Origin: an uncultured Gammaproteobacteria bacterium | Lineage (GTDB): Bacteria > Patescibacteriota > Microgenomatia > UBA12405 | Length of the DNA stretch: 64,000 nt | Assembly (NCBI GenBank): GCA_964448705.1 | Contig: CAYUZS010000004.1 | Coordinates: forward strand, 20,105 to 84,104 | Reading direction: 5' to 3' | Part shown: piece by piece, positions 42,994 through 59,093 of the stretch | Layout: every line of letters begins with the position of its first letter | How positions within the stretch are numbered: position 1 is the stretch's first letter | Made by a program: the position numbers and the translations under genes | The notes under the pieces: model-generated | The model's input: only the letters and a program-made list of their open reading frames with translations | Told to the model about the DNA's origin: nothing | Database searches by the model: none

Positions 42994-43042
42994 ATCATTC
43001 AGGTATCACGTGAAGTACTCTATATACGAATCAGTAGAAAAT

Positions 43043-43094
43043 TAGCGGCGAACCATTGATTTGTAGTGAGTTCATCAAACTATGCAGTTAGAAC
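43043..43094 (+). repeat. repeat family C, copy 1 (TAGCGGCGAACCATTGATTTGTAGTGAGTTCATCAAACTATGCAGTTAGAAC)
   Basis: About 85% identical to copy 2 at 51290-51341. A short form lacking the central roughly 24 nt is at 52341-52372. Confidence 0.7.
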
Positions 43095-43140
43095 TTATTA
43101 TATGAATCAAAGTTATAATCTCGCTGCAACAAATTAAATT

Positions 43141-43863
43141 TTATTTGTTGGCGACAACTTCTATAACATGATCCTCCCGGGGAGAAATTTCTCTCCGCAT
43201 AAAATCCTTGTATAGTCTTTCTTGATATTCAGTAATTTCATCCACTTTCAAGCCTGCTTTTTTTAGATGTTCACGTATCGTAAATGGTGTGTGGAAATAT
43301 CTTGAACCAGTTCCTTCAATTGTACCGTCGGCTCTTCTATAAGAAACAGTTGTCAACCTTGTTTCAGGATCGTAGCTATTATTTGGGTCGTTCTTATTAA
43401 TATTTTTTTCTGACCTGACCACAATAAAAATTTTGCCATTTGGTTTGAGTGATTTATTAAACCCTGCTAAAACCACATCCAAATCTTTGGCTGATAAATA
43501 ATGAAGCACAAGTCTAGCGTAAATAAAATCAAAATAATTAGCAGGATAATTCCATTCACTCTTCAGATCTTCATCTTTTGTTTCAATTTGATTTTCAAGC
43601 CCTACTTGTCGGATTACTTCTCTAGCAAACTCCAACCCTTTTTTATCAATCGTGGTGGCAATTATTTTTCTATTTGGATTTGCTCTTGCCATTCTAATTT
43701 CAGCAAAGCCAGCAGTACTAATTCCTGGACTAAAAACCATCAAATCAGTATCTCTTATCCGTGCTAATCCTCGTTCCTCGCTGGTTGAAGGTTTTGCGCC
43801 TAATTCGTCAAGAATTTCGATTTTCACATGACAATTATACTTCACTTTATTTGACAGAATCAA
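43141..43863 (-). CDS. class I SAM-dependent methyltransferase
   Basis: 'DLMVFSPGISTAGFAEI' motif-I-like, 'KPNGKIFIV' motif; 240 aa. Confidence 0.6.
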   Translation of the reverse strand: MILSNKVKYNCHVKIEILDELGAKPSTSEERGLARIRDTDLMVFSPGISTAGFAEIRMARANPNRKIIATTIDKKGLEFAREVIRQVGLENQIETKDEDLKSEWNYPANYFDFIYARLVLHYLSAKDLDVVLAGFNKSLKPNGKIFIVVRSEKNINKNDPNNSYDPETRLTTVSYRRADGTIEGTGSRYFHTPFTIREHLKKAGLKVDEITEYQERLYKDFMRREISPREDHVIEVVANK

Positions 43864-43873
43864 GAAAAACTAA

Positions 43874-43912
43874 ATTGTCACGTTAACGAGCGAAGCAGGT
43901 AAGTCAGGAACC
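43874..43912 (+). repeat. repeat family A, copy 1 (ATTGTCACGTTAACGAGCGAAGCAGGTAAGTCAGGAACC)
   Basis: 35/39 identical to copy 2 at 51765-51803; shares the core AGCAGG..GTC(T/A)GGAACC with family B. Confidence 0.7.
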
Positions 43913-43944
43913 TTTTGTCCGGACAACGTTATCGATTTACTGTT

Positions 43945-44442
43945 TTAGTTAACCACTTCAAGTTTCTTGGGAATTATGTCAAGTTTGTCGACATTAGGAA
44001 CTGTTTTTGTTCTCATCATTTCTACAATTAACTCCCGATATTCGGTTAACAGGATTCTTGTACCTGGAGTAAGGTTAAGTTTTACTGCCTCATCGATGGT
44101 AAACCAACCAATTTCTTGGCCTTCACCTGGTCCTAAAACAAATTTTGATTCCTCATTCTTATCGACAAAAACTACATATATCCAAACATTTTCGCCTAGT
44201 GAACCCTTAGTTTTTGTTATTAATTTAAAATCCTTTAGTTCGTAACTTACTTCTTCTTTAACTTCTCTAATCAAACCTTGTTCCGGAGTCTCACCTTCCT
44301 CAATACCACCCCCAACTAATTGCCAACAGTCCGGTGAACGAATAATTGGAATATTATCCCGGTGAAATAACAACGTTTTATTGGGACTCAGGATAATGAT
44401 TTTGGCACCGTCTTTAGATTTCATATTTCTTCCTCTTAACAA
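43945..44442 (-). CDS. Nudix hydrolase
   Basis: Nudix box 'GGGIEEGETPEQGLIREVKEEVS'. Confidence 0.8.
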   Translation of the reverse strand: MLRGRNMKSKDGAKIIILSPNKTLLFHRDNIPIIRSPDCWQLVGGGIEEGETPEQGLIREVKEEVSYELKDFKLITKTKGSLGENVWIYVVFVDKNEESKFVLGPGEGQEIGWFTIDEAVKLNLTPGTRILLTEYRELIVEMMRTKTVPNVDKLDIIPKKLEVVN

Positions 44443-44517
44443 TTAATTCATCCCACAAGCATTCGTTCACCTTCAATTTTAACATTACTATAGACTATTA
44501 TTTCATTAACACCACCC

Positions 44518-44619
44518 GAGTGGAGTAGGTGAGTCTGGAACTTTTATATCTTTATAGCCCTATATCTTATTATACCTTCCTTTGTAGCTAAATTAGACAA
44601 ATAAGACATTATAAAAAAG
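44518..44619 (+). repeat. repeat family B, copy 1 (diverged, about 75% to B2/B3)
   Basis: GAGTGGAGTAGGTGAGTCTGGAAC...TAGCTAAATTAGACAAATAAGACATTATAAAAAAG; collinear with B2/B3. Confidence 0.6.
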
Positions 44620-44670
44620 AGTCTCTAAGATAACGATATTGAGTGAACAATATGATATCTCAATAATTTT

Positions 44671-45141
44671 CTATATTATTTCAAACTCTTCCAATAACTT
44701 CTTCATCTTCTCTATCTGTTTGGGAAATATAAGATAAGTAGGGAGGTCTTTTGGATAAACCCATTTAATTGCTCTAATTTCATCTTCTTGGATACCTAAT
44801 TCACTTTCTTTGCCTGTAAATTTAACAAAAAATTGTTTTCTCTCTTGTCCTCGAAATACCGGCTTGTTGTCTTTAATCTTTTGATTTATTAATTCATCCG
44901 ACCATTCATAGCAGTCTCTTAATTCACTGGCTTTGATCACTTCAAATTTATCAATTCCCAACTCTTCACTTAATTCTCTGATAACTGCTACCTCCGGTTT
45001 TTCACCTTCTTCAATCCCTCCACCGGGAATATCCCATTCATTATCTTTATAGCTACATTTTTGGACTATCAAAATCCGCCCAGGCTTATCCATTATTACA
45101 GCACTAGTACTTTGTCTGTAAGTTAAGTTATCACGGTTCAT
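44671..45141 (-). CDS. Nudix hydrolase
   Basis: Nudix box 'GGGIEEGEKPEVAVIRELSEELGI'. Confidence 0.8.
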   Translation of the reverse strand: MNRDNLTYRQSTSAVIMDKPGRILIVQKCSYKDNEWDIPGGGIEEGEKPEVAVIRELSEELGIDKFEVIKASELRDCYEWSDELINQKIKDNKPVFRGQERKQFFVKFTGKESELGIQEDEIRAIKWVYPKDLPTYLIFPKQIEKMKKLLEEFEII

Positions 45142-45614
45142 TTTGATTTCAAACTATTGTCAAAAGTCTGTATCCAACCATCCCATTTTTCATTATTCAT
45201 CTCTACTTCTTCAAAATTGTTGTCAGTAAACTTTGAAATGAAATTCAACCAAAACATATGAGCATTCGGATTTTCTCTAATCTGCCTATTCTCCCATTTT
45301 CCAGGGAATTGGTTAAATACTAATTTGGCTGCCTCTGACCCGATTCCGTTATTCCGAAATTCTTTTTTAACATAAAACTCGGAAATGGTATTTCCTTCCG
45401 TTAAAATCAGTAGGTATGAGTTTATTAAGGCAAACCCAGCAATCTTCCCATCGACTTTTATAAAATATGGATACCTATTTGGTTTTTCCCAATAAGAATC
45501 TAGGTACTTATACTCTTCCGCTTTGTCACCAATAATCTCTCTTTCATAGTCCCAAAGCATATCCCTTAGAATATTTTTATCTTTAATATCAATTTGTTCT
45601 AAATTGACTTCCAT
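45138..45614 (-). CDS. GNAT-family N-acetyltransferase
   Basis: 'ISEFYVKKEFRNNGIGSEAAKLVF' is GNAT motif A; 4-nt overlap with the downstream Nudix gene. Confidence 0.6.
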   Translation of the reverse strand: MEVNLEQIDIKDKNILRDMLWDYEREIIGDKAEEYKYLDSYWEKPNRYPYFIKVDGKIAGFALINSYLLILTEGNTISEFYVKKEFRNNGIGSEAAKLVFNQFPGKWENRQIRENPNAHMFWLNFISKFTDNNFEEVEMNNEKWDGWIQTFDNSLKSK

Positions 45615-45634
45615 AAATAATTATAGCCCAAATA

Positions 45635-46192
45635 TTGGTATATAATTATTCAGAATTATCCGAAGAATACTTCATGATCAACCAATCTATTTTAACCACC
45701 ATAAACTGGCATGGCAATAAAGTCACCTACACCTGGATCCCTACTACTAAAATTAAAAAGTACCAACCCATCCGAAACGTGATTGGTCTTTGTCTAAACG
45801 ATAATCAAGAAGTTCTAATTTGCCGTGAAACTGAAGAAGAAGGTTGGAAGTTACCCGGAGGTCGCCCTGAAGATAATGAAACTCCAATTGAGACATTAAA
45901 ACGGGAGTTAATGGAGGAAGCTGATATTGAAGTAAACAATATAAAAGCTATCGGAACCCAACGTGTCGATTTTCCTAATAATCCAAAACAATCAGAAGGT
46001 GATTTGTTCTACCAAGTACGATATTTTTGTAAAATAGAAAAGATGTTTCCTCAAACTGTAGATCCTGATACTGGAGTGCTTTACGATCGAAAATTTGTGC
46101 CTCTTAGACAGTTGAACAACTACCTAAAGTGGGGAAAAATCGGAGATGCCATAATCAATAAAGTATTAGTAATTGAAAATATAAATGACTAA
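45635..46192 (+). CDS. Nudix hydrolase
   Basis: Nudix box 'GGRPEDNETPIETLKRELMEEADI'. Confidence 0.75.
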   Translation: MVYNYSELSEEYFMINQSILTTINWHGNKVTYTWIPTTKIKKYQPIRNVIGLCLNDNQEVLICRETEEEGWKLPGGRPEDNETPIETLKRELMEEADIEVNNIKAIGTQRVDFPNNPKQSEGDLFYQVRYFCKIEKMFPQTVDPDTGVLYDRKFVPLRQLNNYLKWGKIGDAIINKVLVIENIND

Positions 46193-46721
46193 TAAAACCC
46201 GAGACTGGCAAGAACTCTCCCGGGAAGAAGCTTTTAGAAAATATTCCCGTAAAATTGAGAAAGTAATTTTCAAACTACCCAACGGTAAAGAAACAGATTT
46301 TTACATTAAAAAAGAAGGTCCAACTGCTAGTGTTTTAGCCTTAACATCCGATAATCAAATAATTATTGCCAAGCAATATCGCCCTGGACCAAAAAAAATC
46401 CTGATGGAACTCCCGGGTGGTTTTGTTGACCCAAACGAAGCACCTGAAGTAACCATAAAACGTGAGTTACTGGAAGAAACTGGTTATGAAGGTGATATAA
46501 AGCTAGTTACCACCTGTCTTGATGATGCCTACTCTACGATGGAAAGATATTGTTTTGTTGCTACTAATTGTAAAAAAGTCAAAGAAATTGAGAATGGAGA
46601 GGACGAATTTACCGAGTTAGTTTTAGTTTCACTTAAAGAGTTTAAACAAATTCTTCGAAGTGGCCAAATGACCGATGTGGAAGTCGGATTCTTAGGGTTA
46701 GATTATTTAGGACTACTTTAA
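46185..46721 (+). CDS. Nudix hydrolase (ADP-ribose pyrophosphatase-like)
   Basis: Nudix box 'ELPGGFVDPNEAPEVTIKRELLEETGYEG'. Confidence 0.8.
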   Translation: MTNKTRDWQELSREEAFRKYSRKIEKVIFKLPNGKETDFYIKKEGPTASVLALTSDNQIIIAKQYRPGPKKILMELPGGFVDPNEAPEVTIKRELLEETGYEGDIKLVTTCLDDAYSTMERYCFVATNCKKVKEIENGEDEFTELVLVSLKEFKQILRSGQMTDVEVGFLGLDYLGLL

Positions 46722-47207
46722 ATGAGTCACCAAAGATTAATTATTCTCATGGGCTTGCCGGGTTCGGGCAAATCATACGTCGCGTCACATCTCCAACAAA
46801 AATATGGTTTTATTACATTGTCCGGTGAGGACATTGCTACCAAGTTATTTGGAACTGAAAAACTGTCTGGTCAACAATATGCTCAAGTTTATAAAACAGT
46901 CCGGCAAAAAGCTTCTGAACTACTACAACAGGGATCTTCTGTGATAATTGATGGTACAAATCTCAAGAAACAATTTCGTCAACAAATTTATGACGAAGTT
47001 AAATGCGACCAAACAATTTTGATATATCTCAAAACCGACGATAATGTCGCTATGGATCGAATTTCAAAAAGAAAAAATTCTTGTTCCTCTGAAACATATC
47101 AAGCATTTAAGAACCAGATAGAGGAACCATTTCCGAAAGAAAATGCATTTATTTTGATCTCAGACAACCAGTTATTAGACAACATTGACAAAATAATAAA
47201 TGGATAA
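46722..47207 (+). CDS. P-loop nucleotide/nucleoside kinase-like protein (AAA_33-like)
   Basis: Walker A 'LMGLPGSGKSYVA'; 161 aa. Start abuts the Nudix stop. Confidence 0.55.
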   Translation: MSHQRLIILMGLPGSGKSYVASHLQQKYGFITLSGEDIATKLFGTEKLSGQQYAQVYKTVRQKASELLQQGSSVIIDGTNLKKQFRQQIYDEVKCDQTILIYLKTDDNVAMDRISKRKNSCSSETYQAFKNQIEEPFPKENAFILISDNQLLDNIDKIING

Positions 47208-47523
47208 GAATTTATTAGATAAATTAATTACCGAGTACAAACAACTCTTCGAAAACGTTTGGGAATTTGGAGGTGGTTATGGTTTTCGCTTTCATCATGG
47301 GGTTCGGGTTATGAAATATTGTCAAAAAATTGCTATGCTTCCCAGATTTAAAGACGAAAACATAAGTATTGAGGCTTTGCTAATTGCTGCCCTTTTCCAC
47401 GATATTGGTAAAATCGAAGCAATCGATAAAAATGGTCAATTAGTTTATGGTAATTATGGTGGTATTAGTCATGATGCTTTGGGAGCCAAAATCGCACCTA
47501 AATATTTTTGTTTAAAATACTAG
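47200..47523 (+). CDS. short HD-domain protein (possibly truncated)
   Basis: 'RFHHGVRV' and 'LFHDIGKI' His/Asp motifs of the HD phosphohydrolase fold; only 107 aa. Confidence 0.45.
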   Translation: MDKNLLDKLITEYKQLFENVWEFGGGYGFRFHHGVRVMKYCQKIAMLPRFKDENISIEALLIAALFHDIGKIEAIDKNGQLVYGNYGGISHDALGAKIAPKYFCLKY

Positions 47524-47626
47524 TTGACTTCGTGTTTTCTTCGGTTATTATTATAAATAATAAAGCAAATAAAATAAATATCTCCTTGACCCATCAAGAT
47601 ATTAACAATATACTGACTATATTAAT

Positions 47627-48400
47627 ATGAAATTAAATATTATTTATAATAAATCTTCTGAAAAAATGACTGAAATAGAAGATAAAACTATCCAACTTGT
47701 GGTTACTTCTCCACCATATAACATAGACATCAAATATGGAAACAAATGGAAGGGGAGAAAAATAATTTCGTCTAAAGGTGATAAATATAAAGATAATATT
47801 TCTGAGGAGAACTATAGGAAAATGTTGAAAAAGGTTTTTGAAGAATCAAAGAGAGTTCTTAAAGATAATGGTTCAATCTTTCTGAATATGAAAACCAGAT
47901 ATGATGGAGACCAATTAATACCACCATTTTGGGTATTAGATTATTTTAAAGATATGTTTTTAAAAAATATCATCATTTGGAATTTTGACTGGGGTGGCTC
48001 AACTGAAAAAAGGTTTTCCTCAAGATACGAGTTTGTTTTTTTCTTTACAAAAAACAAAAAAAACTGGACCTTTAATTTGAATGATATTAAAATTCCTAGT
48101 TTAAATTATCGTCCAGACAGATATAAAACCCAACTAAAAAACCCAACTGATGTTTGGAAAATTCCACTAGTTAGTGGTAACTCTCTAGAGAGAACATCAC
48201 ACCCAGCACAATATCCAGAAAAACTAATTGAGAGAATTATTAAAGTATCAACAAACGCAGGTGATATTGTCTTAGATCCCTTTATTGGAAGTGGCACTAC
48301 AGCCGTGGTTGCTAAAAAATTGAAAAGACATTATTTAGGCTATGATACATCTTTAGATTACATTAATATTGCAAAAAATAGATTAAAGAATGAGTTTTAA
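47627..48400 (+). CDS. DNA amino-methyltransferase (N4C/N6A, beta class)
   Basis: Motif IV 'VVTSPPYN' is N-terminal; motif I 'LDPFIGSGTTAVVA' is C-terminal. Confidence 0.8.
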   Translation: MKLNIIYNKSSEKMTEIEDKTIQLVVTSPPYNIDIKYGNKWKGRKIISSKGDKYKDNISEENYRKMLKKVFEESKRVLKDNGSIFLNMKTRYDGDQLIPPFWVLDYFKDMFLKNIIIWNFDWGGSTEKRFSSRYEFVFFFTKNKKNWTFNLNDIKIPSLNYRPDRYKTQLKNPTDVWKIPLVSGNSLERTSHPAQYPEKLIERIIKVSTNAGDIVLDPFIGSGTTAVVAKKLKRHYLGYDTSLDYINIAKNRLKNEF

Positions 48401-48424
48401 TATAAAGTTATATAAATAATTAAT

Positions 48425-49204
48425 ATGCAAAAATATTACTTTGGCGATTGTAGAGATTTGATAAAAAATATTAAAGATAATTCTATAAATTTAGTGGTTA
48501 CATCTCCTCCTTATAATCTTCGTAAAAAATATGGTAAATATAGCGATGATGTAACTATAGAAGAATGGAAAAAATTAATATTTGAGACTACCAAGGAAGT
48601 AGTCAGAGTTTTGGCTCCAAATGGTAGTTTTTTTATAAATATATCCCCCATCCCTCAAAAAAAAACAAAAGAAATTATTCCATTAGACGCCCTTGCTTAT
48701 TCTATTGGGAAAGAGTGTGGATTATATCTTAGAAATTCTATTATATGGACTTTTAATAATATGCAAAATTGTTCAAACAGACTGAGTGGCAGATGGGAAA
48801 GTATTCTTTGGTTTGTTAAAGATATTAATAATTATGTTTTTAATTTAGATAAAGTGAGAGTTCCTTATATAACAAAAGGAGATAAAAGACTTGATCCAAA
48901 TGGAGGTAGAAACCCAACAGATGTTTGGTATTTTGATCGTGTAAATAATATGACTAAGAAAAAATTGGGGATAACGGATGCACCTTGTGTTTATCCAGTA
49001 CCAATGATAGAAAGAATATTAAAAATGTCTACAAAAGAAGGGGATAAAGTGTTAGATCCATTTTTAGGTAGCGGAACTACATTGGTGGCATGTTCTCGAT
49101 TAAAAAGAAATGGAATTGGTTTTGAATTAGATGAAAAATTCAAAACCATTATAGAAAAAAGGCTTAAAACCGAAACTGTTGTTCAATCTAGAATTGATTA
49201 TTAA
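48425..49204 (+). CDS. DNA amino-methyltransferase (N4C/N6A, beta class), second of tandem pair
   Basis: 'VVTSPPYNL' and 'LDPFLGSGTTLVAC'. Confidence 0.8.
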   Translation: MQKYYFGDCRDLIKNIKDNSINLVVTSPPYNLRKKYGKYSDDVTIEEWKKLIFETTKEVVRVLAPNGSFFINISPIPQKKTKEIIPLDALAYSIGKECGLYLRNSIIWTFNNMQNCSNRLSGRWESILWFVKDINNYVFNLDKVRVPYITKGDKRLDPNGGRNPTDVWYFDRVNNMTKKKLGITDAPCVYPVPMIERILKMSTKEGDKVLDPFLGSGTTLVACSRLKRNGIGFELDEKFKTIIEKRLKTETVVQSRIDY

Positions 49205-51104: not shown

Positions 51105-51289
51105 AATACTAACTTCTTTAATTAGAATAAATTAGGCAATTATACCTCTCTTAAGATCAAAAAATGTTTTTTTAAAAGTAAACTATCAATTTATTTATTA
51201 CCTAAGTACGTGAGTTTGGAACAAATCAAAATTAATTTATGGAGTATTACCGCATATATTACATGAAAAGATACGGAAAAAATGAAATT

Positions 51290-51341
51290 TAGCGGCGTAC
51301 CATTGATTTATTGTGAGTTCATCGAACTACCCAGTTAGAAA
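51290..51341 (+). repeat. repeat family C, copy 2
   Basis: TAGCGGCGTACCATTGATTTATTGTGAGTTCATCGAACTACCCAGTTAGAAAC. Confidence 0.7.
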
Positions 51342-51373
51342 CTGTTTTATGACTTTAAACTATAATTTACTTA

Positions 51374-51754: not shown

Positions 51755-51764
51755 ACAATAATTA

Positions 51765-51803
51765 ATTGTCACGACAACGAGCGAAGCAGGCAAGTCTGGA
51801 ACC
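51765..51803 (+). repeat. repeat family A, copy 2 (ATTGTCACGACAACGAGCGAAGCAGGCAAGTCTGGAACC)
   Basis: See copy 1. Confidence 0.7.
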
Positions 51804-52339
51804 TAGTAATTTTTTCCTTTACTACTATGATTTTTTTGACTTTCAAAATACGCTTGGCTAATTGATAAAGCAACTGTCATTTCGTTTGACCTAGGTTTAA
51901 TTTGGTTCCAATCAACCTTTATTACTGGATTAAATCCAGCTAAGTATTTTATTGCCCCAGTTTGGCTTTGGTCATGAGGATTTTCGTAAAAAATCCAAAA
52001 ACCAAAATCTTTCGACAGTTCATCTCCATAATAACCTGATGTAAGGTTTGTTCCACACTCTAAAAATTTATTACCATTCACATTAAGTCTCTTTATTTCA
52101 ATATATATAGTTTCTTTGCCCGGTGAATCGGATTCAATCCTTCCCAATTCTATATACCCTCCATTAGCCAAAGGAATTATCATCGACTTTGTCCCGTCAA
52201 TCTCTCTACCATCATTATCAATTGTTACCGGAAGCAAGGCTCTTTCTTTCCAAATACCACTAGCAACCATATAAGCTCTACTCTGAGTAGATCTTTTGAC
52301 TGGATCAAGATCAACTATATTGGTATTATTTTCTTTCAT
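51803..52339 (-). CDS. hypothetical protein
   Basis: ORF only; bounded by repeat A2 and the short C repeat. Confidence 0.3.
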   Translation of the reverse strand: MKENNTNIVDLDPVKRSTQSRAYMVASGIWKERALLPVTIDNDGREIDGTKSMIIPLANGGYIELGRIESDSPGKETIYIEIKRLNVNGNKFLECGTNLTSGYYGDELSKDFGFWIFYENPHDQSQTGAIKYLAGFNPVIKVDWNQIKPRSNEMTVALSISQAYFESQKNHSSKGKNY

Positions 52340-52340
52340 T

Positions 52341-52372
52341 TTGGCGGCGAACCATTGACGCAGTTAGAACCT
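52341..52372 (+). repeat. repeat family C, short form (TTGGCGGCGAACCATTGACGCAGTTAGAACC)
   Basis: Equals the long C form with the central 'TTTGTAGTGAGTTCATCAAACTAT' removed. Confidence 0.6.
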
Positions 52373-52375
52373 ATC

Positions 52376-52702
52376 TTATTCAACATCAATTAATTTCACA
52401 AAATCAATTTCAGGTTCCTCATATGGGTGAATTGCTTTGATTGTTTCTTTTACTGCTTTAGATCTTTCTTCAGGACAGATCATTTCAATTCTAACTTCTG
52501 GCTCATGAGAAAATTCTCCAACTTTTCCAATAGTCGGATTTGAGCCTTCTTCTGATTTCCAATTACCAATCCCTTTAGTAAAAAAACATGTGTGAGTGTA
52601 ATTTCCCAAAACACCAGCCCCAGCATCTGCAGCCGCATTTATGATTGAAAAAATTATTTTTTCATCATCTGGGCAAAAGACAAAAAGTTTATACACAATC
52701 AA
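52376..52702 (-). CDS. small ferredoxin-like-fold protein, possibly CutA-like
   Basis: C-terminal 'HPYEEPEIDFVKL' resembles the CutA 'HPYEVPEI' motif; weak. Confidence 0.3.
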   Translation of the reverse strand: MIVYKLFVFCPDDEKIIFSIINAAADAGAGVLGNYTHTCFFTKGIGNWKSEEGSNPTIGKVGEFSHEPEVRIEMICPEERSKAVKETIKAIHPYEEPEIDFVKLIDVE

Positions 52703-52746
52703 TTATAACAACAAAAAACATCAGTAGAATAGGGTAATTATATCTT

Positions 52747-52860
52747 GGCGGAGCAGGTGGGTCTGGAACCTTTCTATCCTTATAACTCTGTTCCCAAACC
52801 TCTGTCTTATTCTACCCCTTCTCTGAAGCTAAATGAGACAAATGAGACAGTATAAAAAAG
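52747..52860 (+). repeat. repeat family B, copy 2 (114 nt)
   Basis: GGCGGAGCAGGTGGGTCTGGAACCTTTCTATCC...GAAGCTAAATGAGACAAATGAGACAGTATAAAAAAG. About 95% identical to B3 apart from a 12-14 nt insertion. Confidence 0.75.
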
Positions 52861-52954
52861 GGAATGGTCGATTTTAACAGGTTCTCGATTTGTAAGCCTA
52901 TAAGATGTATAATTGTTACCGATATTGTGGTAAATCACATGAAATAAAAAAATA

Positions 52955-54085
52955 ATGAGTAATGAAAGACAGTTTACTAGGATCAAACAAGAAACTTGGA
53001 GTATGGCTTCAGGAATACAAACGCGTAGTCAAGTGGTTTCTGAAATTTTTCCTGCAGGAATGGATGCTAAACAAGATCAAAACATAAGATTCTTTAGAAG
53101 TTTAGCAGGCAGCGAAACAGACATATTTCTAAAACTTTTCACTGGAAGCAAATGGCAAGCGGACGCTGAGGTGGTAAACACCAGAGTCTTAACATCCGCA
53201 AAAGTAGAAGGGGTTGTTCCGATACTAGATAGTGAATCAACGGGAAACAATTCGTTAATCATTTACCCATATGTAGAAGGAAAGTCTTTTCATTCAGATG
53301 TCAGGTCTCCATCATATACTTCAAGAGTTATAGAAAGTACGAGTAATGTCTTGAGAAGATCGATAGCTTTGGAAGGTTTTAAAATCTTTAGAATTCCAGA
53401 AACTTTTTTAAAACAATATCCATTTCCAGAGACAGTATTTGCTGAACCTATATTCAAGCAGATTAACCAAGCTTATAGCCCTTTTTGGAAGTTGCGACAA
53501 ACAATCTGTACTCAAAACCCAGGTCTCTCGATGGATAGAACACCTCGAAATGTATTAATAACAAATAGGGGTGAAATCAATCAAATTGATTTCGAGCTGG
53601 TTTATCCCGATTCACCATTATTCGATCTATCAAAACTGCTTAGAAATGGTCCGGAATCTGGAGTGGCGAATGGAATAACAATTTTAGATGCAATAAAGTC
53701 CCCAGAATTAATTTTTGGAAAGTCAAATCCTTTTTCAAAAAGTGAAGAAAGTAAATTAGTTGATCAATTTATCAAAACCACATTACCGGGACAGGATAAA
53801 TCAAAGGCCGTACAAAATTACTGGCAAGTTTCTGCTCATACGCACATTTTTTACATTTCTAAATATTTGAGAAGATATAAAGAAGTTGCCGATATTGATG
53901 TAAAAGAGAATGCTTATAGAAGACTTGTATTTCATTTTGCTGGATTATTTTCCCTTAAAGATAAATTAATGGAACCGTATTTAGGCAACAAAACACCAAA
54001 TGTTGAAACTTTAACAGGAGGAGTCGAGAAAAAAGATGTTATAAGATTATTTGATTTATATAAAACATTAGCCCAACAAATATAA
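52955..54085 (+). CDS. protein-kinase-like-fold phosphotransferase (APH/choline-kinase-like)
   Basis: 'MDRTPRNVLITNRGEINQIDFELV' corresponds to the catalytic-loop Asp and Asn plus the IDFE block of APH/ChoK enzymes. Confidence 0.5.
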   Translation: MSNERQFTRIKQETWSMASGIQTRSQVVSEIFPAGMDAKQDQNIRFFRSLAGSETDIFLKLFTGSKWQADAEVVNTRVLTSAKVEGVVPILDSESTGNNSLIIYPYVEGKSFHSDVRSPSYTSRVIESTSNVLRRSIALEGFKIFRIPETFLKQYPFPETVFAEPIFKQINQAYSPFWKLRQTICTQNPGLSMDRTPRNVLITNRGEINQIDFELVYPDSPLFDLSKLLRNGPESGVANGITILDAIKSPELIFGKSNPFSKSEESKLVDQFIKTTLPGQDKSKAVQNYWQVSAHTHIFYISKYLRRYKEVADIDVKENAYRRLVFHFAGLFSLKDKLMEPYLGNKTPNVETLTGGVEKKDVIRLFDLYKTLAQQI

Positions 54086-54089
54086 TAAT

Positions 54090-55301
54090 ATGAAAAATAA
54101 GTGCGATATTTTTATCGTAATACCCTTCTTTAATGAACAAGCCAGACTTCCAGAAATTTTAGACAGTATCCTTGAATCCGCCAAAGATAAGTTTAAGGTT
54201 CATGTAGTCCTCGTAAATCACCAAAGTACAGACAATTCTGTTGAAATAGCCAAGCGCTATTCAAGTAATTTTTTTAAGTTCCAGATAATTGAGGAGACTA
54301 TTCCTATTCCTTGTGGTGGTCAGCCAAGAAATACCGGATTGAAAGAAGCTATAAAACAAGCAGAAGAGTTTTACGACGATAATTCCATTCCCATTGCTAC
54401 CCTCGACGCCGATGTCATTGTTTCTATAAATTTCATTCCAGAAATTATTGAAAAATTAAATACTGGTTTTGACATAGTTTCTTTTAGTGAAAGATACAAT
54501 CCAAAAGAACTGGTTGATTTTGTTGATAGTCAATTACAAAAGGACCTAAGCATCAGATACTTTATTGGTTTGAATTGGATTAGGTACCAAGTATTATGGG
54601 GATTAATTGATGCTGGTGTAAAAGAAACCCGTGGACCTGGTGGTTACGCCATGAGAGCAAGTACCCTAAAAGATTTAGGTCACAAGCAACCATTTGATGC
54701 TAATGGACAACCTGTCACTGGAGAAAACAATCGTCTTGGAATAATTGCTAACAGAAAAAAGCTAAAAGTATATTGCAGTAATTATTACTCCCAAGTCCAT
54801 CCTCGCCGAGAAATTGTTTCCTGCACTAATATCACTCAAAAAGGTTATTCAAAGAACAAAGACAATGCAGAAGTATTTAAACTCGCCCGGGAAGTTGAAA
54901 GCTATCCGATTCTATCTGAAGAGCAATTAAGCAATTATTTAATAAACGGAATCAAGCGGACTATAAGGATGGTCTTAATAAGAGCCGTCGCCTACGATAA
55001 ATTAGATGATATTAACCACTGGTTTACTCATCCAATTTGGCATCAACTCATTGCTCAATCAAAAGAATTTGTAAAACAAAACCACCCCACTGAAGAGACC
55101 TTGGAGGTCATCGGGAATGGGTTTTATAACGACTTGTTCAGTTCCGTGGTTTCACAAATTGGAGACAGTGAGTTTGAAGGCTTTGTTGATTTCATTATCC
55201 ATAAAATTCCCAATAACCAAGTACTTATTAATTGGATTAAAGACAATTCACTAATAATTGATCCAGATCCAGAATTTATTAACAATGAAAAAAGAAATTG
55301 A
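54090..55301 (+). CDS. glycosyltransferase family 2 (GT-A)
   Basis: 'IFIVIPFFNEQARL', 'VVLVNHQSTDNS', DxD 'TLDADVIVS'. Confidence 0.7.
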   Translation: MKNKCDIFIVIPFFNEQARLPEILDSILESAKDKFKVHVVLVNHQSTDNSVEIAKRYSSNFFKFQIIEETIPIPCGGQPRNTGLKEAIKQAEEFYDDNSIPIATLDADVIVSINFIPEIIEKLNTGFDIVSFSERYNPKELVDFVDSQLQKDLSIRYFIGLNWIRYQVLWGLIDAGVKETRGPGGYAMRASTLKDLGHKQPFDANGQPVTGENNRLGIIANRKKLKVYCSNYYSQVHPRREIVSCTNITQKGYSKNKDNAEVFKLAREVESYPILSEEQLSNYLINGIKRTIRMVLIRAVAYDKLDDINHWFTHPIWHQLIAQSKEFVKQNHPTEETLEVIGNGFYNDLFSSVVSQIGDSEFEGFVDFIIHKIPNNQVLINWIKDNSLIIDPDPEFINNEKRN

Positions 55302-56271
55302 AAAATATATAGTTGATCCCGAAGCTTATTACCGAGATTTATATATAAATCTTGGAATCAGAGACAAGGCTGATCAATTAATTCAGTCACTCGGTTCAAT
55401 GGCAGAACCAATTAGGTATACCCATGATTTGTGGTATTCCAAAACGAAACCTGTTTTACCTGCAATTATGGCTCTAGAAGCTGGGGTTCCTCAAGATAAG
55501 GTCGCCAAAGTAGGTGCAGTAGTTGATGTCTTATGGACTTTGTCTGTAGTTGTTGATGATATTCAAGATAAAGATGAAACTCGAAGATCAAAACCTGCTG
55601 CTTGGCGAGTCTATGGTGCTGATAACACCTACCATTCCGCAGAAGCTGGTTTAGCTGCCACGGTCAAGTATTTATCAAAAGAAATTGGACCATATGCAGG
55701 GCAATCTTGTGTAGACAGTGTCAATCTAGGTATGGCATCAATTAAAAAGCATCAAGCCTTTGACTTGGCTGTCAGACCTAGTACATTGCATCAAAATTAT
55801 TGGGAACGCGACGCCTTTTTTTCATCCCTGCCAATTGAAGTATTGCTACCTGATCCAAAAGACCCTCGAAGAATTGCCTCCCTTGCATGCCTGGAGAATT
55901 ACTATATTGGCGGGCAATTAGGTAATGATATTCAAGATCTTACTAGACCTGAACCTAATGGATTATTACGGCTCAGCGATATCAAAAACGGTTTAGTAAC
56001 CATACCGATACAAAAGCTATGGAGTCAACTAGATGAGAGCGAAAAACAAACTTTTGAGAAAGTCTTTGGTCGAAAGGAGCTTGATGATTCTGGATATAGA
56101 GCAATTAAGTTAATGGTTGAAAAGTATAATCTAGCAGAACAAATTGTTATGGATATATCTGAAAGTTATAATAAAGCCATAAATCAGGCTGCTGGGGCAA
56201 TGAATCCTGATGATCAGCAAGTGTTCAAGTCACTTTGTGAAAGCCAAAAAGCAAAGTTCTTAGCAAGATAA
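55258..56271 (+). CDS. class I isoprenoid synthase-fold protein (terpene synthase / polyprenyl synthetase-like)
   Basis: First Asp-rich motif 'VVDDIQDKDETRR' (DDxxD...RR). Second motif degenerate to 'NDIQDL', closer to terpene-synthase NSE/DTE than to prenyltransferase DDxxD. Likely start at Met 55285. Confidence 0.45.
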   Translation: MIQIQNLLTMKKEIEKYIVDPEAYYRDLYINLGIRDKADQLIQSLGSMAEPIRYTHDLWYSKTKPVLPAIMALEAGVPQDKVAKVGAVVDVLWTLSVVVDDIQDKDETRRSKPAAWRVYGADNTYHSAEAGLAATVKYLSKEIGPYAGQSCVDSVNLGMASIKKHQAFDLAVRPSTLHQNYWERDAFFSSLPIEVLLPDPKDPRRIASLACLENYYIGGQLGNDIQDLTRPEPNGLLRLSDIKNGLVTIPIQKLWSQLDESEKQTFEKVFGRKELDDSGYRAIKLMVEKYNLAEQIVMDISESYNKAINQAAGAMNPDDQQVFKSLCESQKAKFLAR

Positions 56272-57147
56272 CTAAAGCCAAATTTCATGGATTCCTTCAA
56301 GTTTCCCCAATCTTCCATGGGAAACTGAAGCTTTTGATCTAACATATCCGGTTTGGGTACCATCGGGGAGCAACGCAAGTTTCTTCTCACTCAAAATTCC
56401 AGTCAGATGTACTGATGAATCAATATCTAAGTTAGTCAAGTCAAATCTAGTTGGAAATGTTGTTCCCATCTTCTCTGATCTAGAAAACTCAGAAGTGGCA
56501 AATCGTCTTACATGATCAGCCTTGATTAATCTATCTTTCTCCCATAATAGAATATGCGATTCTGTTTGTGAAAAACCATATACCATTGTCAATTCTTCGC
56601 TAAACAATCTTCCAAATTGCCAACCTCTTAAAAAGTAGGGTAATATCTCTCGATTATTCATTTTGTCCGCAGGATCTTCATAGATAAACCAATTATGATC
56701 ATGATATCCTCTCCCAGAAAAATCCAAACTAACTCCGTCTTTTATAAGTTGCCCGCTAACTCGTGCACGGGGAATCTCTATTTGCCACCTCATGTTACCT
56801 TGGTTAATTGTAACCAGTTGAGGTTTGATTTCCGGGGTAAATTGTAGCTGACAGTTTACGTCGGAAGTGTTCAATCTCAAGTTTACTCCTGATGTATCAG
56901 CCCTTAATTCCTGACCAGAAATTACAATATTTCCTTCTTTTAGGTCAGCCACACCCTGTTGGTGAATTGACGACTCTACTCCATCGGGTGAGTTAATATA
57001 AGTTGAAACTGTTGAAGGATTTATGCCAATTCTTGGGTAAAATATACTTATTATCTTCCATCCATTCTGATCTTGAGCATCCACATATTTCCACTCTGTG
57101 TGAGCAATTGGGTGAAGGGAGGAATCTTTGTTAATCTCGTAATTCAT
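56272..57147 (-). CDS. CrtC/AttH-like (hydroxyneurosporene synthase family) putative hydratase/hydrolase
   Basis: 'FSGRGYHDHNWF' resembles the recalled AttH/CrtC family block 'G.GY.DH.WG'; beta-rich, 291 aa. Confidence 0.4.
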   Translation of the reverse strand: MNYEINKDSSLHPIAHTEWKYVDAQDQNGWKIISIFYPRIGINPSTVSTYINSPDGVESSIHQQGVADLKEGNIVISGQELRADTSGVNLRLNTSDVNCQLQFTPEIKPQLVTINQGNMRWQIEIPRARVSGQLIKDGVSLDFSGRGYHDHNWFIYEDPADKMNNREILPYFLRGWQFGRLFSEELTMVYGFSQTESHILLWEKDRLIKADHVRRFATSEFSRSEKMGTTFPTRFDLTNLDIDSSVHLTGILSEKKLALLPDGTQTGYVRSKASVSHGRLGKLEGIHEIWL

Positions 57148-57201
57148 AGGTGTTTATAAATTGTGTGCAATTATACGATATTTCGCGCTATAATTCATAC
57201 T

Positions 57202-57891
57202 ATGAACTCATTTCAAGAATTTAACCGATTGTGGACTCAAAAGAAGGTCAAAACTCCACTTTTTATCTTTATCGGTGGTTATTGCGGGACAGGGAAATCA
57301 ACTTTAGCCAAGGCTCTTCAGGAAAAAATTGTTGAATCTACTATTGTTCCTACTGGAATTGTCCGTGCTACTTGTAAACCATTTTTGAAAAATATGGGAG
57401 AGATTTACGGATGCCACACCTATCGACTAGGGCAATTCAGTCAAAACGATATTGAATTATTTGCAAATTATAAAAAGCAGTCATCAATATTAAATGAGCC
57501 TATTAAAGAATTATGTAATTTTGCCACTTCAGAAATGCAAAACTTAATTATTGACGGTAACCACATTTTTCCTGAGTTGGTAAATTCTATCGAAACAAGT
57601 CTGAAAATTGATGTTTATATGAAAACTTCTGATGAACTACAGTTAATAAAAAACATGACCGACATTACCCATCCTCGTATTATGAATGAAGTCGAGATGG
57701 AAACAGCAAAGAAATTGCACCAAATGACAGCGACAGAAATTAGTCAATCAAAAACAATGTTTGAATATAACCAATCTAGTCTGGCAGTTGAATATGTTGA
57801 AAAAGAGTTAGGTGTTTTACTCGAAAATATCGTGGGTGTCAGAACCACCAGTAGAATAGGTGTTTCTGCTACTTCGTCTCTGGTTTTCTAA
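57202..57891 (+). CDS. P-loop kinase-like protein
   Basis: Walker A 'IGGYCGTGKSTLAKAL'. Track start 57163 is probably an extension; Met 57202 precedes the conserved block. Confidence 0.5.
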   Translation: MNSFQEFNRLWTQKKVKTPLFIFIGGYCGTGKSTLAKALQEKIVESTIVPTGIVRATCKPFLKNMGEIYGCHTYRLGQFSQNDIELFANYKKQSSILNEPIKELCNFATSEMQNLIIDGNHIFPELVNSIETSLKIDVYMKTSDELQLIKNMTDITHPRIMNEVEMETAKKLHQMTATEISQSKTMFEYNQSSLAVEYVEKELGVLLENIVGVRTTSRIGVSATSSLVF

Positions 57892-58827
57892 TAAAACCTT
57901 TTTAGTTAATTGATTGTATTCAAGCTTCGGTTTTTTATATCTCCGGTAATCACCTTCAGCACCATCCAATCCTTTTTCCAGATAGCTGTTTAAAAAGTCA
58001 ATAAAGTTAGCCTCATTTATTTGGTTTTCTTCAAACCTGTCTTCAAAAGTTTTACCAGGGTGAGCCATTATTTTTACGAAGGGAAGCTCGATTACTTTCT
58101 TAACTATCTCCTCATTGATTGGCAAGGTGTCAAGAGGCCATGGTACAACCTTGTCAAAAATATATCCAAGCGCGTATTTGGGAGCTTGTTCAAGAGGAAT
58201 ACTAAACTTAGTTGCAAAAGCTTCGAGATTTATTAGGTTAAAAGGTGCCAACAACATACCCAAATGCGGTTTGCTAACATAATCTCTTCTTATTTCGAGA
58301 ATTTTTCCAGTTCTTAGGTCAACTCGTGAAGCGTTTTCAAGAGTTATATATTTTAGGATTTTGTCTTTCTCATCCTCGGTCTTATTCTTCCAATTCATCC
58401 ATTCTATCTGGTCACTTTTCTGCAAAAACTCAATAATCTTATTGATTGAGTCAGATACATAACCACTTCTAGTCTTGTTTAATTCGTTTACTAAAGTGCT
58501 AATTTTCTCTCGGTATTCTTCACTAATACTATTTTCGACGTTGTCGTACACCAGAACATCAAGACCACCGCCACATTCAATTTCAACTCCCGGTATTAAT
58601 GAAATGCCACTTTGTATCGCCAACTGGAAGTTTTCTTCTGTATAAGCAGCAATAGAATTATGATCAGTAATCGAAACCAACTTAAGTCCTTTAACTACTG
58701 CGGAATTTATTAAATCAGTAGGAGTATTCTTTCCGTCCGAAAAAATGGTATGGCTTTGAAGATCAAAGTCACTAGAATTTACTTCTTCGGGAGCGTTTAT
58801 AAGAAACTTATTCAGTACGTTAGTCAT
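57817..58827 (-). CDS. PHP-domain (polymerase/histidinol-phosphatase-like) metal-dependent phosphoesterase
   Basis: 'LQSHTIFSDG', 'VSITDHNSI', and C-terminal 'GGSDTHD' His/Asp ligands. Confidence 0.7.
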   Translation of the reverse strand: MTNVLNKFLINAPEEVNSSDFDLQSHTIFSDGKNTPTDLINSAVVKGLKLVSITDHNSIAAYTEENFQLAIQSGISLIPGVEIECGGGLDVLVYDNVENSISEEYREKISTLVNELNKTRSGYVSDSINKIIEFLQKSDQIEWMNWKNKTEDEKDKILKYITLENASRVDLRTGKILEIRRDYVSKPHLGMLLAPFNLINLEAFATKFSIPLEQAPKYALGYIFDKVVPWPLDTLPINEEIVKKVIELPFVKIMAHPGKTFEDRFEENQINEANFIDFLNSYLEKGLDGAEGDYRRYKKPKLEYNQLTKKVLLENQRRSSRNTYSTGGSDTHDIFE

Positions 58828-58930
58828 GGCTATATGTTATCACCCTAAAGAATCTTTCAAAATATCCAGACATGAAAAAAGATGAATTGCATTTCGGTAA
58901 AAAGTTTTTCTACGGATTCCTTCGGATTCA

Positions 58931-59030
58931 GCGGAGCAGGTGGGTCTGGAACCTTTCTATCCCTATAACCCTATGTCTTATCCTACCCCTTCTTTGAAGC
59001 TAAATGAGACAAATAAGACACTATAAAAAG
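58931..59030 (+). repeat. repeat family B, copy 3 (100 nt)
   Basis: GCGGAGCAGGTGGGTCTGGAACCTTTCTATCCCTATAACC...GAAGCTAAATGAGACAAATAAGACACTATAAAAAG. Confidence 0.75.
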
Positions 59031-59093
59031 ATACGTGGTAAAACAATGATATGGTTTGACACTCAAATTTAATATAGACAACAGTTGGAATAT

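Follow-up and report, generated by a model that had tools for sequence, protein, structure and literature searches.

Same-strand repeats that most likely record serial integration beside a tRNA-Ser gene in a Patescibacteria genome

The region between 43.0 and 63.9 kb of the window (the whole 64,000-nt stretch of DNA analysed here) is, with a probability of roughly 0.55, a composite genomic island in which elements integrated site-specifically, one after another, at the 3′ end of a tRNA-Ser(GGA) gene and then decayed. Its repeats are most likely the scars of mobile DNA inserted successively beside this gene, in a member of the Patescibacteria with a tiny genome. An earlier note had likened the region both to tandem att remnants and to an integron attC array. 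The first likeness gains from the mimicry of the tRNA-Ser 3′ end, from arrays downstream of tRNA-Ser genes and from a recombinase family found at tRNA genes; the second is lost, as the repeats fold no better than shuffled sequence and IntI is absent.

Repeats of the island and their likeness to a tRNA 3′ end

The features of the island are as follows.
43042-43094, + strand: C1, long form of the C site (TTAGCGGCGAACCATTGA...GCAGTTAGAAC); outermost repeat of the island
43873-43912, + strand: A1, core variant GCGAAGCAGGTAAGTCAGGAACC with the A-specific left flank AATTGTCACGTTAACGA
44517-44620, + strand: B1, diverged full B; core GTGGAGTAGGTGAGTCTGGAACT and arm with TTAGACA/TAAGACA iterons
51188-51288, + strand: F′, degenerate core (GTGAGTTTGGAAC) with flank; 79% paralogue of 63736-63858, adjoining C2 and not a tRNA
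51289-51341, + strand: C2, long form of the C site
51764-51803, + strand: A2, core variant GCGAAGCAGGCAAGTCTGGAACC with the A-specific left flank
52341-52371, + strand: C short form, TTGGCGGCGAACCATTGACGCAGTTAGAACC, without the central 23-24 nt of the long form
52745-52862, + strand: B2, canonical 23-nt core GCGGAGCAGGTGGGTCTGGAACC and arm with TGTCTTAT (inverted) and two copies of ATGAGACA (direct)
58928-59032, + strand: B3, canonical core and arm
59094-61232, - strand: SF1 helicase with MTES_1575/DUF559 nuclease domain; a cargo gene, about 300 N-terminal residues short of a 1020-aa orthologue
61247-62454, + strand: IS3-family insertion sequence; HTH orfA, rve orfB and 25-nt terminal inverted repeats
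62455-63359, + strand: large serine recombinase remnant; Recombinase and Zn-ribbon domains kept, Resolvase catalytic domain (about 148 residues) lost
63736-63858, + strand: core-like motif (CATCCCCTCGAGGACATGGGTCTGGAAC) and flank F of about 90 nt, next to tRNA-Ser(GGA) in all orthologous recombinase loci
63859-63945, - strand: tRNA-Ser(GGA), the island anchor; 3′ end read on the + strand, TGGCGGAGGGAGGGGGATTCGAACC

All copies of families A, B and C lie on the + strand where the earlier note had placed them, and their numbers are far beyond chance for a 64-kb window. The shared A/B core described there is real: AGCAGGYRRGTCWGGAACC, with up to three mismatches, has five matches against 0.04 expected from shuffled sequences, all five on the + strand between 43.9 and 59 kb. 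The C head has three exact matches against 0.09 expected. A further copy near the tRNA (GGGTCTGGAAC at 63758), the shortened C at 52341 and the twofold order C-gene-A-gene-B were likewise found as described. A degenerate core within F′ (51198-51223) adds to this set.

B2 and B3 are indeed close copies, at 90.5% identity with a 12-nt indel rather than the proposed 95% or so; B1 shares 82-84% with both, A1 and A2 share 90%, and C1 and C2 share 87%. The long B form carries an arm of about 90 nt beside the core, in which an 8-mer (ATGAGACA/TGTCTCAT) occurs three to four times. The inverted 8-mer covaries with the direct ones, two to three positions being changed on both sides, and matches both direct copies equally well. 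Family A amounts to the B core with another left flank and no arm; A1 retains about 20 nt of the arm (TTTTGTCC..ACAAC), and A2 adjoins the stop codon of the minus-strand gene 51803-52339. B3 is the core copy closest to the recombinase remnant and the tRNA, and an independent assembly from the same population breaks inside it, at 58933.

On the minus strand, the terminal sequence of A and B is GGTTCCAGACCCACCTGCTCCGC(CA), which mimics the 3′ end of tRNA-Ser; this is the main point that the earlier note overlooked. On the + strand the mimic follows the pattern GCGG.G...T.GAACC. The tRNA-Ser(GGA) gene lies upstream of all copies, on the minus strand, and every copy has its strand sense and lies on its 3′ side, at most 21 kb away. 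C2 stands beside F′ where the tRNA-Ser 3′ end stands at 63859. Compared with the 3′-terminal 23 nt of 19 distinct tRNA-Ser genes the core has 4-9 mismatches, and compared with those of eight other tRNAs 9-14; exact identity between the window's own tRNA end and the B cores covers only 6-9 nt.

The conserved secondary structure for which the earlier note had suggested a check did not emerge: A, B and C fold no better than shuffled sequence (z-scores -0.8 to +2.6, both strands), and the repeats have no Rfam match even at E ≤5. Pairing of the T arm is kept in two high-GC loci only. The repeats are conserved in sequence, not in structure. An integron attC array was rejected because folding does not exceed that of shuffles, an Rfam match is absent and there is no IntI.

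The core in other Patescibacteria

The 23-nt core is nearly invariant in about 25 other Patescibacteria loci (numbered with L below) whose GC content ranges from 28 to 69%. Exact copies occur in 14 stretches from 13 representative assemblies and in 16 metagenome stretches, intergenic without exception and with one or two exact copies per representative genome. Same-orientation arrays are found in L003, L015, L020, L023, L029, L030 and L049. A tRNA-Ser gene occupies the expected side and strand in L006/L028, L009, L011, L017, L027/L030, L039, L049 and L002+L037, the core repeatedly lying 0.5-30 kb downstream of it. The C short form recurs in L018 and L023, on the same strand as the adjoining B cores, and L023 also bears a hybrid-looking core, GCGGAGAGGGTGAG. 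Seven of eight arm-less cores directly follow the stop codon of a gene reading in the tRNA sense; beside full B copies, genes point either way without preference.

Homologous B copies are accompanied by differing cargo in the window, L014, L015 and L002, a comparison of related genomes that the earlier note had proposed. The Nudix and GNAT genes to the right of B1 are syntenic with L014, the Nudix gene also with L015; in both of these loci the B arm holds a 50-nt insertion flanked by a TCTTATT duplication. The word cassettes used in the earlier note fits only in part: cargo differs between related loci, but some of these differences occur without any bounding repeat, and no cassette was observed together with its own core in more than one array or position.

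A serine recombinase family at tRNA genes

The nearby serine recombinase is truncated and is not an IntI, as had been noted, though it is not alone: an IS3-family transposase is encoded at 61311-62436, and the IS3 element truncates the genes on both sides, helicase and recombinase. Although the recombinase had been set aside, it is probably relevant to the repeats. Intact members of its family invariably adjoin a tRNA gene, usually one for tRNA-Ser, and have the same flank.

Intact orthologues share 64-85% identity with it. The six orthologue contexts that extend far enough (L032, L033, L037, L039, L041 and L044) all have the core-like motif, F and tRNA-Ser(GGA) within 0.5-1.9 kb after the recombinase. 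More distant recombinases (44-53% identity) adjoin tRNA-Ser(CGA), tRNA-Ser(ACT) or tRNA-Glu, with a related flank. The recombinase gene faces a core, a tRNA 3′ end or a tRNA 3′-like fragment in the window, L003, L022 and L032-L049, i.e., in all contexts with enough flank. L003 has four cores in an array besides its full-length recombinase, and L039 has a degenerate B between recombinase and tRNA. The gene belongs to a conserved module (ParB_N-N6_N4 methylase, HTH_3 regulator and a protein of about 500 aa with a weak terminase match) that carries variable defence cargo. Left of the recombinase, no core was found within 7-10 kb in L032-L049, and in no case was the left end of an intact element with this recombinase recovered. 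The 109 ORFs (at least 170 aa each) that surround the cores of related loci include no recurrent tyrosine-integrase family, nor any other recurrent integrase family apart from the serine recombinase.

Flank F also stands beside tRNA-Ser without a recombinase in L017, as does a related flank in L049, so these flanks may be native chromosome. A block like 63736-63858 adjoins a B core in L005, and the helicase orthologue in L055 (90% identity) has no adjoining B.

Serial integration and alternative readings

A, B and C would be attachment-site sequences, short mimics of the tRNA-Ser 3′ end, each marking a junction produced when an integrative element entered next to the tRNA or next to an older junction. 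With repeated entry, elements would pile up in tandem with the polarity of the tRNA, and deletion together with IS activity would reduce them to modules of one to six genes. The enzyme would probably belong to the large serine recombinase family of which 62455-63359 is a truncated member; its action on the A, B and C sites, the position of crossover, the order of insertions and any mobility of single-gene cassettes are what we infer. The arm of B is most simply read as a putative protein-binding end of one element family. Tandem arrays of integrative elements are known to arise because each integration leaves a complete core on either side of the insert (PMC7192596). Against the serial-integration reading, neither recombination products nor empty sites nor excised circles were observed. 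Simple scars would also be expected to vary, whereas this core hardly does so across very divergent genomes. With large serine recombinases, attP and attB normally share only the central dinucleotide, and attL and attR are not re-used; a repeated 23-nt core with tandem accretion is for this reason more typical of tyrosine integrases.

The sites might belong to another integrase, e.g., a tyrosine integrase encoded elsewhere or lost, with the serine recombinase element as one of several tenants of a tRNA-Ser hotspot. Tyrosine integrases that target tRNA 3′ ends classically go with a repeated core, iterons of the arm type and accretion in tandem (PMC7192596), and the recombinase-free flanks of L017 and L049 and the degenerate B of L039 agree with such tenancy. 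This is nonetheless quite unlikely, given that the serine recombinase is the sole recurrent integrase family among the 109 ORFs around the cores and, in all contexts with enough flank, faces a core, a tRNA 3′ end or a fragment resembling one. An integron-like system is unlikely too: here the core would be the single site of small circular cassettes of one to few genes, moved in trans by a recombinase of the serine family or another, with tRNA-Ser as the anchor of the arrays. Cores do enclose one-gene units (A1-Nudix-B1 and Cshort-CutA-like-B2 here, others in L003, L023, L030 and L039), arm-less cores after stop codons recall an ORF followed by its attC, the 8 kb fetched for most arrays contain no recombinase, and a near-invariant core suits a site under selection. 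However, no cassette recurs with its own core, full B copies ignore gene orientation, a hairpin-forming site and IntI are absent, and modules of up to six genes with a 100-nt paralogous flank suit decayed larger elements better.

It is distinctly improbable that the repeats are cis-acting expression elements, B being a promoter or operator region and the A and C cores tRNA-like tags for the processing or stability of minus-strand transcripts. Each of the three B copies has a minus-strand gene downstream, B contains -10-like hexamers, the 8-mers change in step, and nucleotide housekeeping is a common theme of the neighbouring genes (Nudix, HIT, HD, kinases); but sigma-70 spacing does not fit, the equal match of the inverted 8-mer to both direct copies points to repeated protein sites rather than one hairpin, the folding, Rfam and T-arm results speak against this reading, and the linkage to tRNA-Ser and recombinase would go unexplained. 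Dispersed REP/MITE-like repeats, the outcome that the earlier note had named as refuting its view, or chance similarity, are scarcely credible. In their favour, the repeats are short and intergenic, and a 50-nt insertion lies inside the B arm in L014 and L015; yet the excess of core matches, the one or two exact copies per representative genome, the single polarity close to the tRNA and the lack of terminal inverted repeats and hairpins all oppose these readings.

Comparison with known systems

Integrons and CALIN (attC clusters without integrase) resemble the island in having same-orientation intergenic sites between unrelated, often single genes. Unlike them, the window has no IntI, its sites are conserved in sequence rather than as hairpins and leave the R′′/R′ consensus (RYYYAAC / GTTRRRY) unmatched, and its units hold up to six genes on both strands. 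In streptococcal cis-mobilizable elements, att-flanked segments that no longer have recombination genes persist by accretion, in a tandem array that shares its integration site with a complete element. These systems employ tyrosine integrases and conjugative helpers, to which nothing found here is comparable.

The SCC composite islands of staphylococci are built by Ccr large serine recombinases that insert at the 3′ end of rlmH, and comprise tandem elements delimited by repeated att copies, including pseudo-elements without recombinase, with cargo unrelated between units. The island would share with them large serine recombinases that act where a conserved gene ends, and repeated att copies, whereas the SCC target is a protein gene rather than tRNA-Ser and the site sequence is unrelated; the recombinases are not known to be close relatives.

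The Ralstonia filamentous phages phiRSM1 and phiRSM3 use a serine recombinase with the att core TGGCGGAGAGGGT, which is the tRNA-Ser 3′ end in reverse orientation (PMC3816273). B2 starts with TGGCGGAGCAGGT, and the hybrid-looking core of L023 reads GCGGAGAGGGTGAG. The text consulted describes no arrays for phiRSM (PMC3816273). phiRSM is an inovirus of a proteobacterium with a small resolvase/invertase-type enzyme, whereas the enzyme here is a large serine recombinase of about 450 aa with Recombinase and Zn-ribbon domains, encoded within a ParB-methylase/HTH module in Patescibacteria.

Tandem integrative elements at tRNA genes differ in that large serine recombinases were described as not known for tRNA-gene targeting (PMC7192596), while the linked recombinase of the window is of that type. 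The repeat here is a near-invariant 23-mer common to very divergent genomes rather than a displaced host tRNA end, and many units are single genes without integrase. The overall layout is shared: a tRNA at one end, tRNA-3′-like direct repeats of one polarity at inner and outer junctions, a recombinase gene beside the tRNA-proximal junction and diverse accessory cargo, in arrays that are attributed to re-use of the restored core (PMC7192596).

Repeat families and gene content of the island

All repeats listed in the earlier note were confirmed in place and on the plus strand. They are intergenic and belong to three families, A, B and C:

43042-43094, plus strand, family C copy, 87% identical to C2
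43873-43912, plus strand, family A copy, 90% identical to the second A copy
44517-44620, plus strand, family B copy B1
51289-51341, plus strand, family C copy C2
51764-51803, plus strand, second family A copy
52341-52371, plus strand, C short form, with the central 23-24 nt missing
52745-52862, plus strand, family B copy B2
58928-59032, plus strand, family B copy B3

The identity of B2 and B3, previously put at about 95%, was measured at 90.5% with a 12-nt indel, and B1 is 82-84% identical to both. A 23-nt core common to A and B, with five matches in the window versus 0.04 expected by chance, is extended in B by an arm of ~90 nt. The head of C has three exact matches versus 0.09 expected. When the window was searched with a B profile, matches were confined to 43.9-59 kb.

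The gene map of the earlier note agrees with the domain annotation of the window ORFs. The island encodes a methyltransferase, five Nudix hydrolases, GNAT, a kinase, HD, two DNA methylases and HIT, together with a weak CutA1 match, a glycosyltransferase/polyprenyl-synthase group, PHP, a helicase-nuclease, an IS3 element and a serine-recombinase fragment. Some of the units between repeats comprise a single gene in the sense of the tRNA, and others hold 2-8 genes on both strands.

The five Nudix genes lie within 3 kb (43945-47523) next to the GNAT, AAA_33 kinase and HD genes, with HIT a few kb beyond. A like theme is found in a B-flanked region of L002 (L-numbered loci were fetched from other genomes or metagenomes), which carries CYTH, HD_3 deoxynucleotidase, dNK, NDK-like and nucleoside deoxyribosyltransferase genes; nucleotide-housekeeping enzymes seem to accumulate at this hotspot. 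The adjoining segment 47627-51104 lies in the stretch of lowest GC in the window (28.5%). It holds a pair of neighbouring N6_N4 DNA methylase genes and, after them, two convergent ORFs of 369 and 265 aa that match no Pfam family; a restriction-modification cassette is its probable identity. Over 1-46 kb the GC skew is strongly negative; it switches sign near 46 kb, where gene orientation turns from the minus to the plus strand (region ~44000-46000).

Likeness of the repeats to a tRNA-Ser 3′ end

Read on the minus strand, the A/B core is GGTTCCAGACCCACCTGCTCCGC(CA), a feature that the first reading had missed. Judged by its sequence, it is shaped as the 3′ end of a tRNA, with a T-loop-like segment, an acceptor strand, a discriminator G and CCA. 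The core differs from the 3′ ends of 19 distinct tRNA-Ser at 4-9 of 23 positions, versus 9-14 for eight other tRNAs. The sole tRNA gene of the window is tRNA-Ser(GGA) at 63859-63945 on the minus strand (ARAGORN; Rfam 53 bits). Its 3′ end faces every repeat, and the polarity and position of the repeats are those expected for a tRNA-anchored island. Exact identity between the core and this tRNA end extends over just 6-9 nt; the core is no copy of the host tRNA end.

The tRNA is adjoined by 123 nt (63736-63858) made up of a core-like motif, CATCCCCTCGAGGACATGGGTCTGGAAC, and a ~90-nt flank, F. A 79% paralogue of this block, F′, lies at 51188-51288. Since C2 follows F′ exactly where the tRNA end follows F, family C also holds the position of a tRNA end. 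The C short form, TGGCGGCGAACCATTGACGCAGTTAGAACC, has a GCGG head and a GAACC tail as in the core. A palindrome at 63743-63750, 8-10 nt to the left of GGGTCTGGAAC, has equivalents in L032, L033, L037, L044, L017 and L005, with symmetric changes between loci (CCTCGAGG, CCTTAAGG, CCCTTGGGG, CCCTCGGGG), and is a candidate crossover or dimer-binding centre. The core itself is without dyad symmetry, and the core-like motifs are direct, not inverted, repeats.

Distribution of the core in other genomes

When 185,579 representative genomes were scanned with GCGRAGCAGGYRRGTCWGGAACC, 14 stretches from 13 assemblies matched; a metagenome scan with the 21-mer gave 16 stretches. The records belong to Patescibacteria (Shapirobacteria, Saccharibacteria, "Patescibacteria group") or to low-GC MAGs labelled Gammaproteobacteria. 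MAGs titled Gammaproteobacteria or Pseudomonadales (L002, L003, L005-L008, L012-L014) have a GC content of 28-41% and genes, the IS3 and the recombinase family in common with the Patescibacteria loci; their labels look wrong. By its M3 oligoendopeptidase (583-aa ORF, 37088-38839), the window is nearest to Shapirobacteria/Microgenomates.

The 23-mer is nearly invariant across loci of 28-69% GC. To stay so nearly invariant over phylum-level divergence, the sequence must either be under strong selection as a protein-binding site or have spread horizontally in recent times. The core is intergenic in every locus, with one or two exact copies per representative genome, and takes two forms: core only (A-like) and core with arm (B-like). 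The arm is ordered as TTTCTATCCCTATAAC, an inverted 8-mer TGTCTYAT, two direct 8-mers ATGAGACA, GTATAAAAAAGG and often TGTCTC. A ~50-nt insertion interrupts the arm in L014 (525-582) and L015 (6967-7024). Flanked by a TCTTATT duplication and enclosing a small hairpin (AAGAACC..GGTTCTT), it has the look of a miniature mobile insertion.

Same-orientation arrays of cores are present in L003, L015, L020, L023, L029, L030 and L049. The L003 array has four cores, the last three separated by single-gene units, and the C short form was found within the arrays of L018 and L023. Loci in which the core lies near a tRNA-Ser gene are listed below; the anticodons of the tRNA-Ser near cores are GGA, TGA, CGA, GCT and ACT. 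Only L010/L031 runs contrary to this pattern: there a tRNA-Thr, in the opposite orientation, is 20 nt away from the core.

Table. Distance from the core to tRNA-Ser, in every row on the expected side and strand
Locus: distance
L009, L011: 0.5 kb
L017: 0.7 kb
L006/L028: 1 kb
L039: 1.3 kb
L049: 1.4 kb
L027/L030: 2.8 kb
L002 plus L037 (one contig): 30 kb

An unusual tRNA-Ser with a predicted ACT anticodon (A34) occurs in L011 (2954-3039), L049 (9826-9913) and L051 (8980-9067), and adjoins a recombinase in the last two. A GC-rich motif of ~36 nt, AGCGCYAGCCTGGCGGATGGCC..CGAGCCACCGC, with minihelix-like self-complementarity, stands in AT-rich DNA after the tRNA-Ser end in L006 (~6036-6075) and beside the core in L012 (oriented ~6100-6136).

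Alternative identities of the repeats

The earlier note had likened the repeats to integron attC arrays or to tandem att remnants. That interpretation is partly supported: the second comparison holds, and the first fails for want of an IntI and of a hairpin fold. No tyrosine-integrase family was detected among the window ORFs at 39.4-63.4 kb, and around cores elsewhere (109 ORFs, each ≥170 aa) none recurred in two or more loci. Folding of A, B and C was no better than that of shuffled sequence on either strand (z-scores -0.8 to +2.6). Integron attC sites conserve structure while their sequence varies, whereas the present core is almost invariant in sequence and forms no hairpin. Genome-wide dispersed REP/MITE-like elements, the outcome against which the cassette array had originally been set, are at odds with the one or two exact copies per representative genome and with the clustering of B-profile matches in the window. 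Neither palindromic nor terminal-inverted-repeat structure was found in the repeats.

A tRNA, tmRNA or split-tRNA gene was rejected: ARAGORN and Rfam return just tRNA-Ser(GGA), and the core has no 5′ acceptor partner upstream. T-stem pairing is seen only in L004 and L009, two high-GC loci. A known RNA family was likewise rejected, with no Rfam match at the gathering score or at E ≤5, as was a phage attP, the core and C patterns being absent from 2.9 million viral contigs. A sigma-70 promoter in B would have, as read from the sequence, spacers of 20-23 or 8-11 nt between candidate -35 and -10 elements and was also set aside. The B arm does covary: its inverted 8-mer changes together with the direct 8-mers (GAGACA/TGTCTC, AAGACA/TGTCTT, GGGACA/TGTCCC). 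Its complementarity to the two direct copies is equal (89% and 84% of cells), and 2-3 pairs are altered on both sides. Several sites for one protein would fit this covariation at least as well as an RNA helix.

The serine recombinase and its disruption by IS3

An ORF at 62520-63359, 500 nt from tRNA-Ser(GGA), encodes Recombinase and Zn-ribbon domains without the Resolvase catalytic domain. Homology of this remnant to intact recombinases begins at 62455, the first position beyond the right inverted repeat of an element of the IS3 family (61247-62454) with 25-nt terminal inverted repeats (TGACCAGTACCCCTT...). On the other side, the helicase-nuclease is also truncated, its homology to a 1020-aa, 90%-identical orthologue ending at 61248. 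The missing Resolvase domain is attributable to IS3, and since both neighbours have lost their N-termini, the IS, or a deletion caused by it, removed the DNA between them. An IS3 copy, 76-86% identical, lies in L014 at 5288-6413.

A protein search placed the remnant in a large family of recombinases of 430-455 aa from Patescibacteria; the intact orthologues among them show 64-85% identity. Resolvase, Recombinase and Zn-ribbon domains are all present in the L003 recombinase and in the intact homologues P0001-P0008. The six orthologue contexts with enough flank (L032, L033, L037, L039, L041, L044) all contain, within 0.5-1.9 kb downstream of the gene, the core-like motif, F and tRNA-Ser(GGA), the tRNA being on the strand opposite to the recombinase each time. 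More distant recombinases also abut tRNA genes: tRNA-Ser(CGA) in L045 (53% identical to the remnant), tRNA-Glu in L047 (47%) and tRNA-Ser(ACT) in L049 (44%). A second flank type, TTAGCAAG..CATCAACCCATT..GGGTCT..GAAC plus ~12 nt, is common to these three; it is also found in L003, between the recombinase and a tRNA fragment with cores, and in L006/L022, between the recombinase and a full B. F occurs without a recombinase in L017, and a related flank likewise in L049.

A conserved module ends with the recombinase gene; its other members are a ParB_N-N6_N4 methylase, proteins of ~142 aa and ~500 aa (the latter with a weak terminase match) and an HTH_3 regulator, and variable defence genes lie to its left. 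Short tandem iterons precede the ParB_N-methylase gene in L041 (3085-3135, TTGTCTAGTG twice), L032 (3125-3165, TTGTCACCCTC two to three times) and L039 (5330-5450, GATAGATAAG three times). In style these repeats are akin to the TGTCTCAT iterons of the B arm, a hint that one protein may bind both. Whether B could form the left boundary of the recombinase element was also considered, with divided evidence. One MAG carries B (contig position 50) and the recombinase with its tRNA (28.6-30.5 kb) on the same contig in the right orientation. No core was found within 7-10 kb to the left of intact recombinases in any context examined, nor did the fetched contexts include the left boundary of any element with an intact recombinase, and B is absent beside the helicase orthologue of L055. 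The core could accordingly be a half-site either of the element or of its target.

Proposed assembly of the island and its significance

We favour, with a probability of roughly 0.55, the reading that the region is a composite tRNA-anchored island built by serial site-specific integration at tRNA-Ser. Elements would integrate beside the tRNA-Ser end, leaving att sequences of a single polarity at both junctions. Re-use of these junctions would give tandem arrays of unrelated elements, and deletions and IS activity would then shrink the elements to small modules. Tandem arrays arising from re-used att sequences after integration at a tRNA end are described (PMC7192596). Such accretion predicts the observed junctions of flank and core, namely F′-C2 in the window, F-B in L005 and the second flank type by the core in L003 and L006. 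Turnover of cargo can be seen at the homologous B copies of four loci.

Table. Genes to the right of B
Window: B-Nudix-GNAT-Nudix
L014: B-Nudix-GNAT-three extra genes-Nudix
L015: B-gene-B-Nudix-other
L002: the two genes found 3.9 kb from B in L014

Some cargo differences between loci are not bounded by repeats. Neither a clean empty site nor a recombination product was found in the compared loci, and a search for strain variants of the island gave only contigs identical to the window (same population).

A bolder reading, which we regard as unlikely, is integron-like gene capture in Patescibacteria. Here a large serine recombinase would take the place of IntI, a near-invariant 23-nt mimic of the tRNA-Ser 3′ end would serve as the universal joint, cassettes of one to several genes would be inserted and shuffled in tRNA-Ser arrays, and the iteron arm of B would act as a platform-like primary site. 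The cassette cargo would comprise nucleotide housekeeping enzymes, methylases and defence genes.

Patescibacteria have very small genomes, and their gene gain and loss are little understood. If the proposed reading is right, the 3′ side of tRNA-Ser genes would be a hotspot where accessory genes enter, through the site GCGGAGCAGGTGGGTCTGGAACC and with the recombinases as candidate enzymes. Among the genes entering there would be those for Nudix, HIT and HD enzymes, methyltransferases, restriction-modification systems and helicase-nucleases. It would also be a well-populated case of serine recombinases at tRNA genes, which is unusual per the literature; the 23-mer would be a simple metagenome marker for such islands, and the recombinase and its sites could be tested as a tool in an otherwise intractable group. 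Were the reading only partly right, the region would still be an ordinary composite genomic island and no new class of system. Literature searches that paired Patescibacteria with serine recombinases, genomic islands or tRNA yielded no relevant work.

Comparison with known site-specific systems

Large serine recombinases normally act on attP and attB sites of ~40-50 bp, each an imperfect dyad about a central dinucleotide; the sites have no long core in common, and attL/attR are not re-used. The repeated 23-nt core is atypical for such an att system, and the site architecture looks more tyrosine-like than the sole enzyme found, a serine recombinase. A direct precedent is phage phiRSM1, whose serine recombinase uses the 3′ end of tRNA-Ser with an att core, TGGCGGAGAGGGT, that almost equals the start of B2, TGGCGGAGCAGGT (PMC3816273). 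For a tRNA-anchored island, the region is unusual in its serine-recombinase family mostly tied to tRNA-Ser in Patescibacteria, its conserved pseudo-tRNA 23-mer, its iteron-bearing arm and its many single-gene units.
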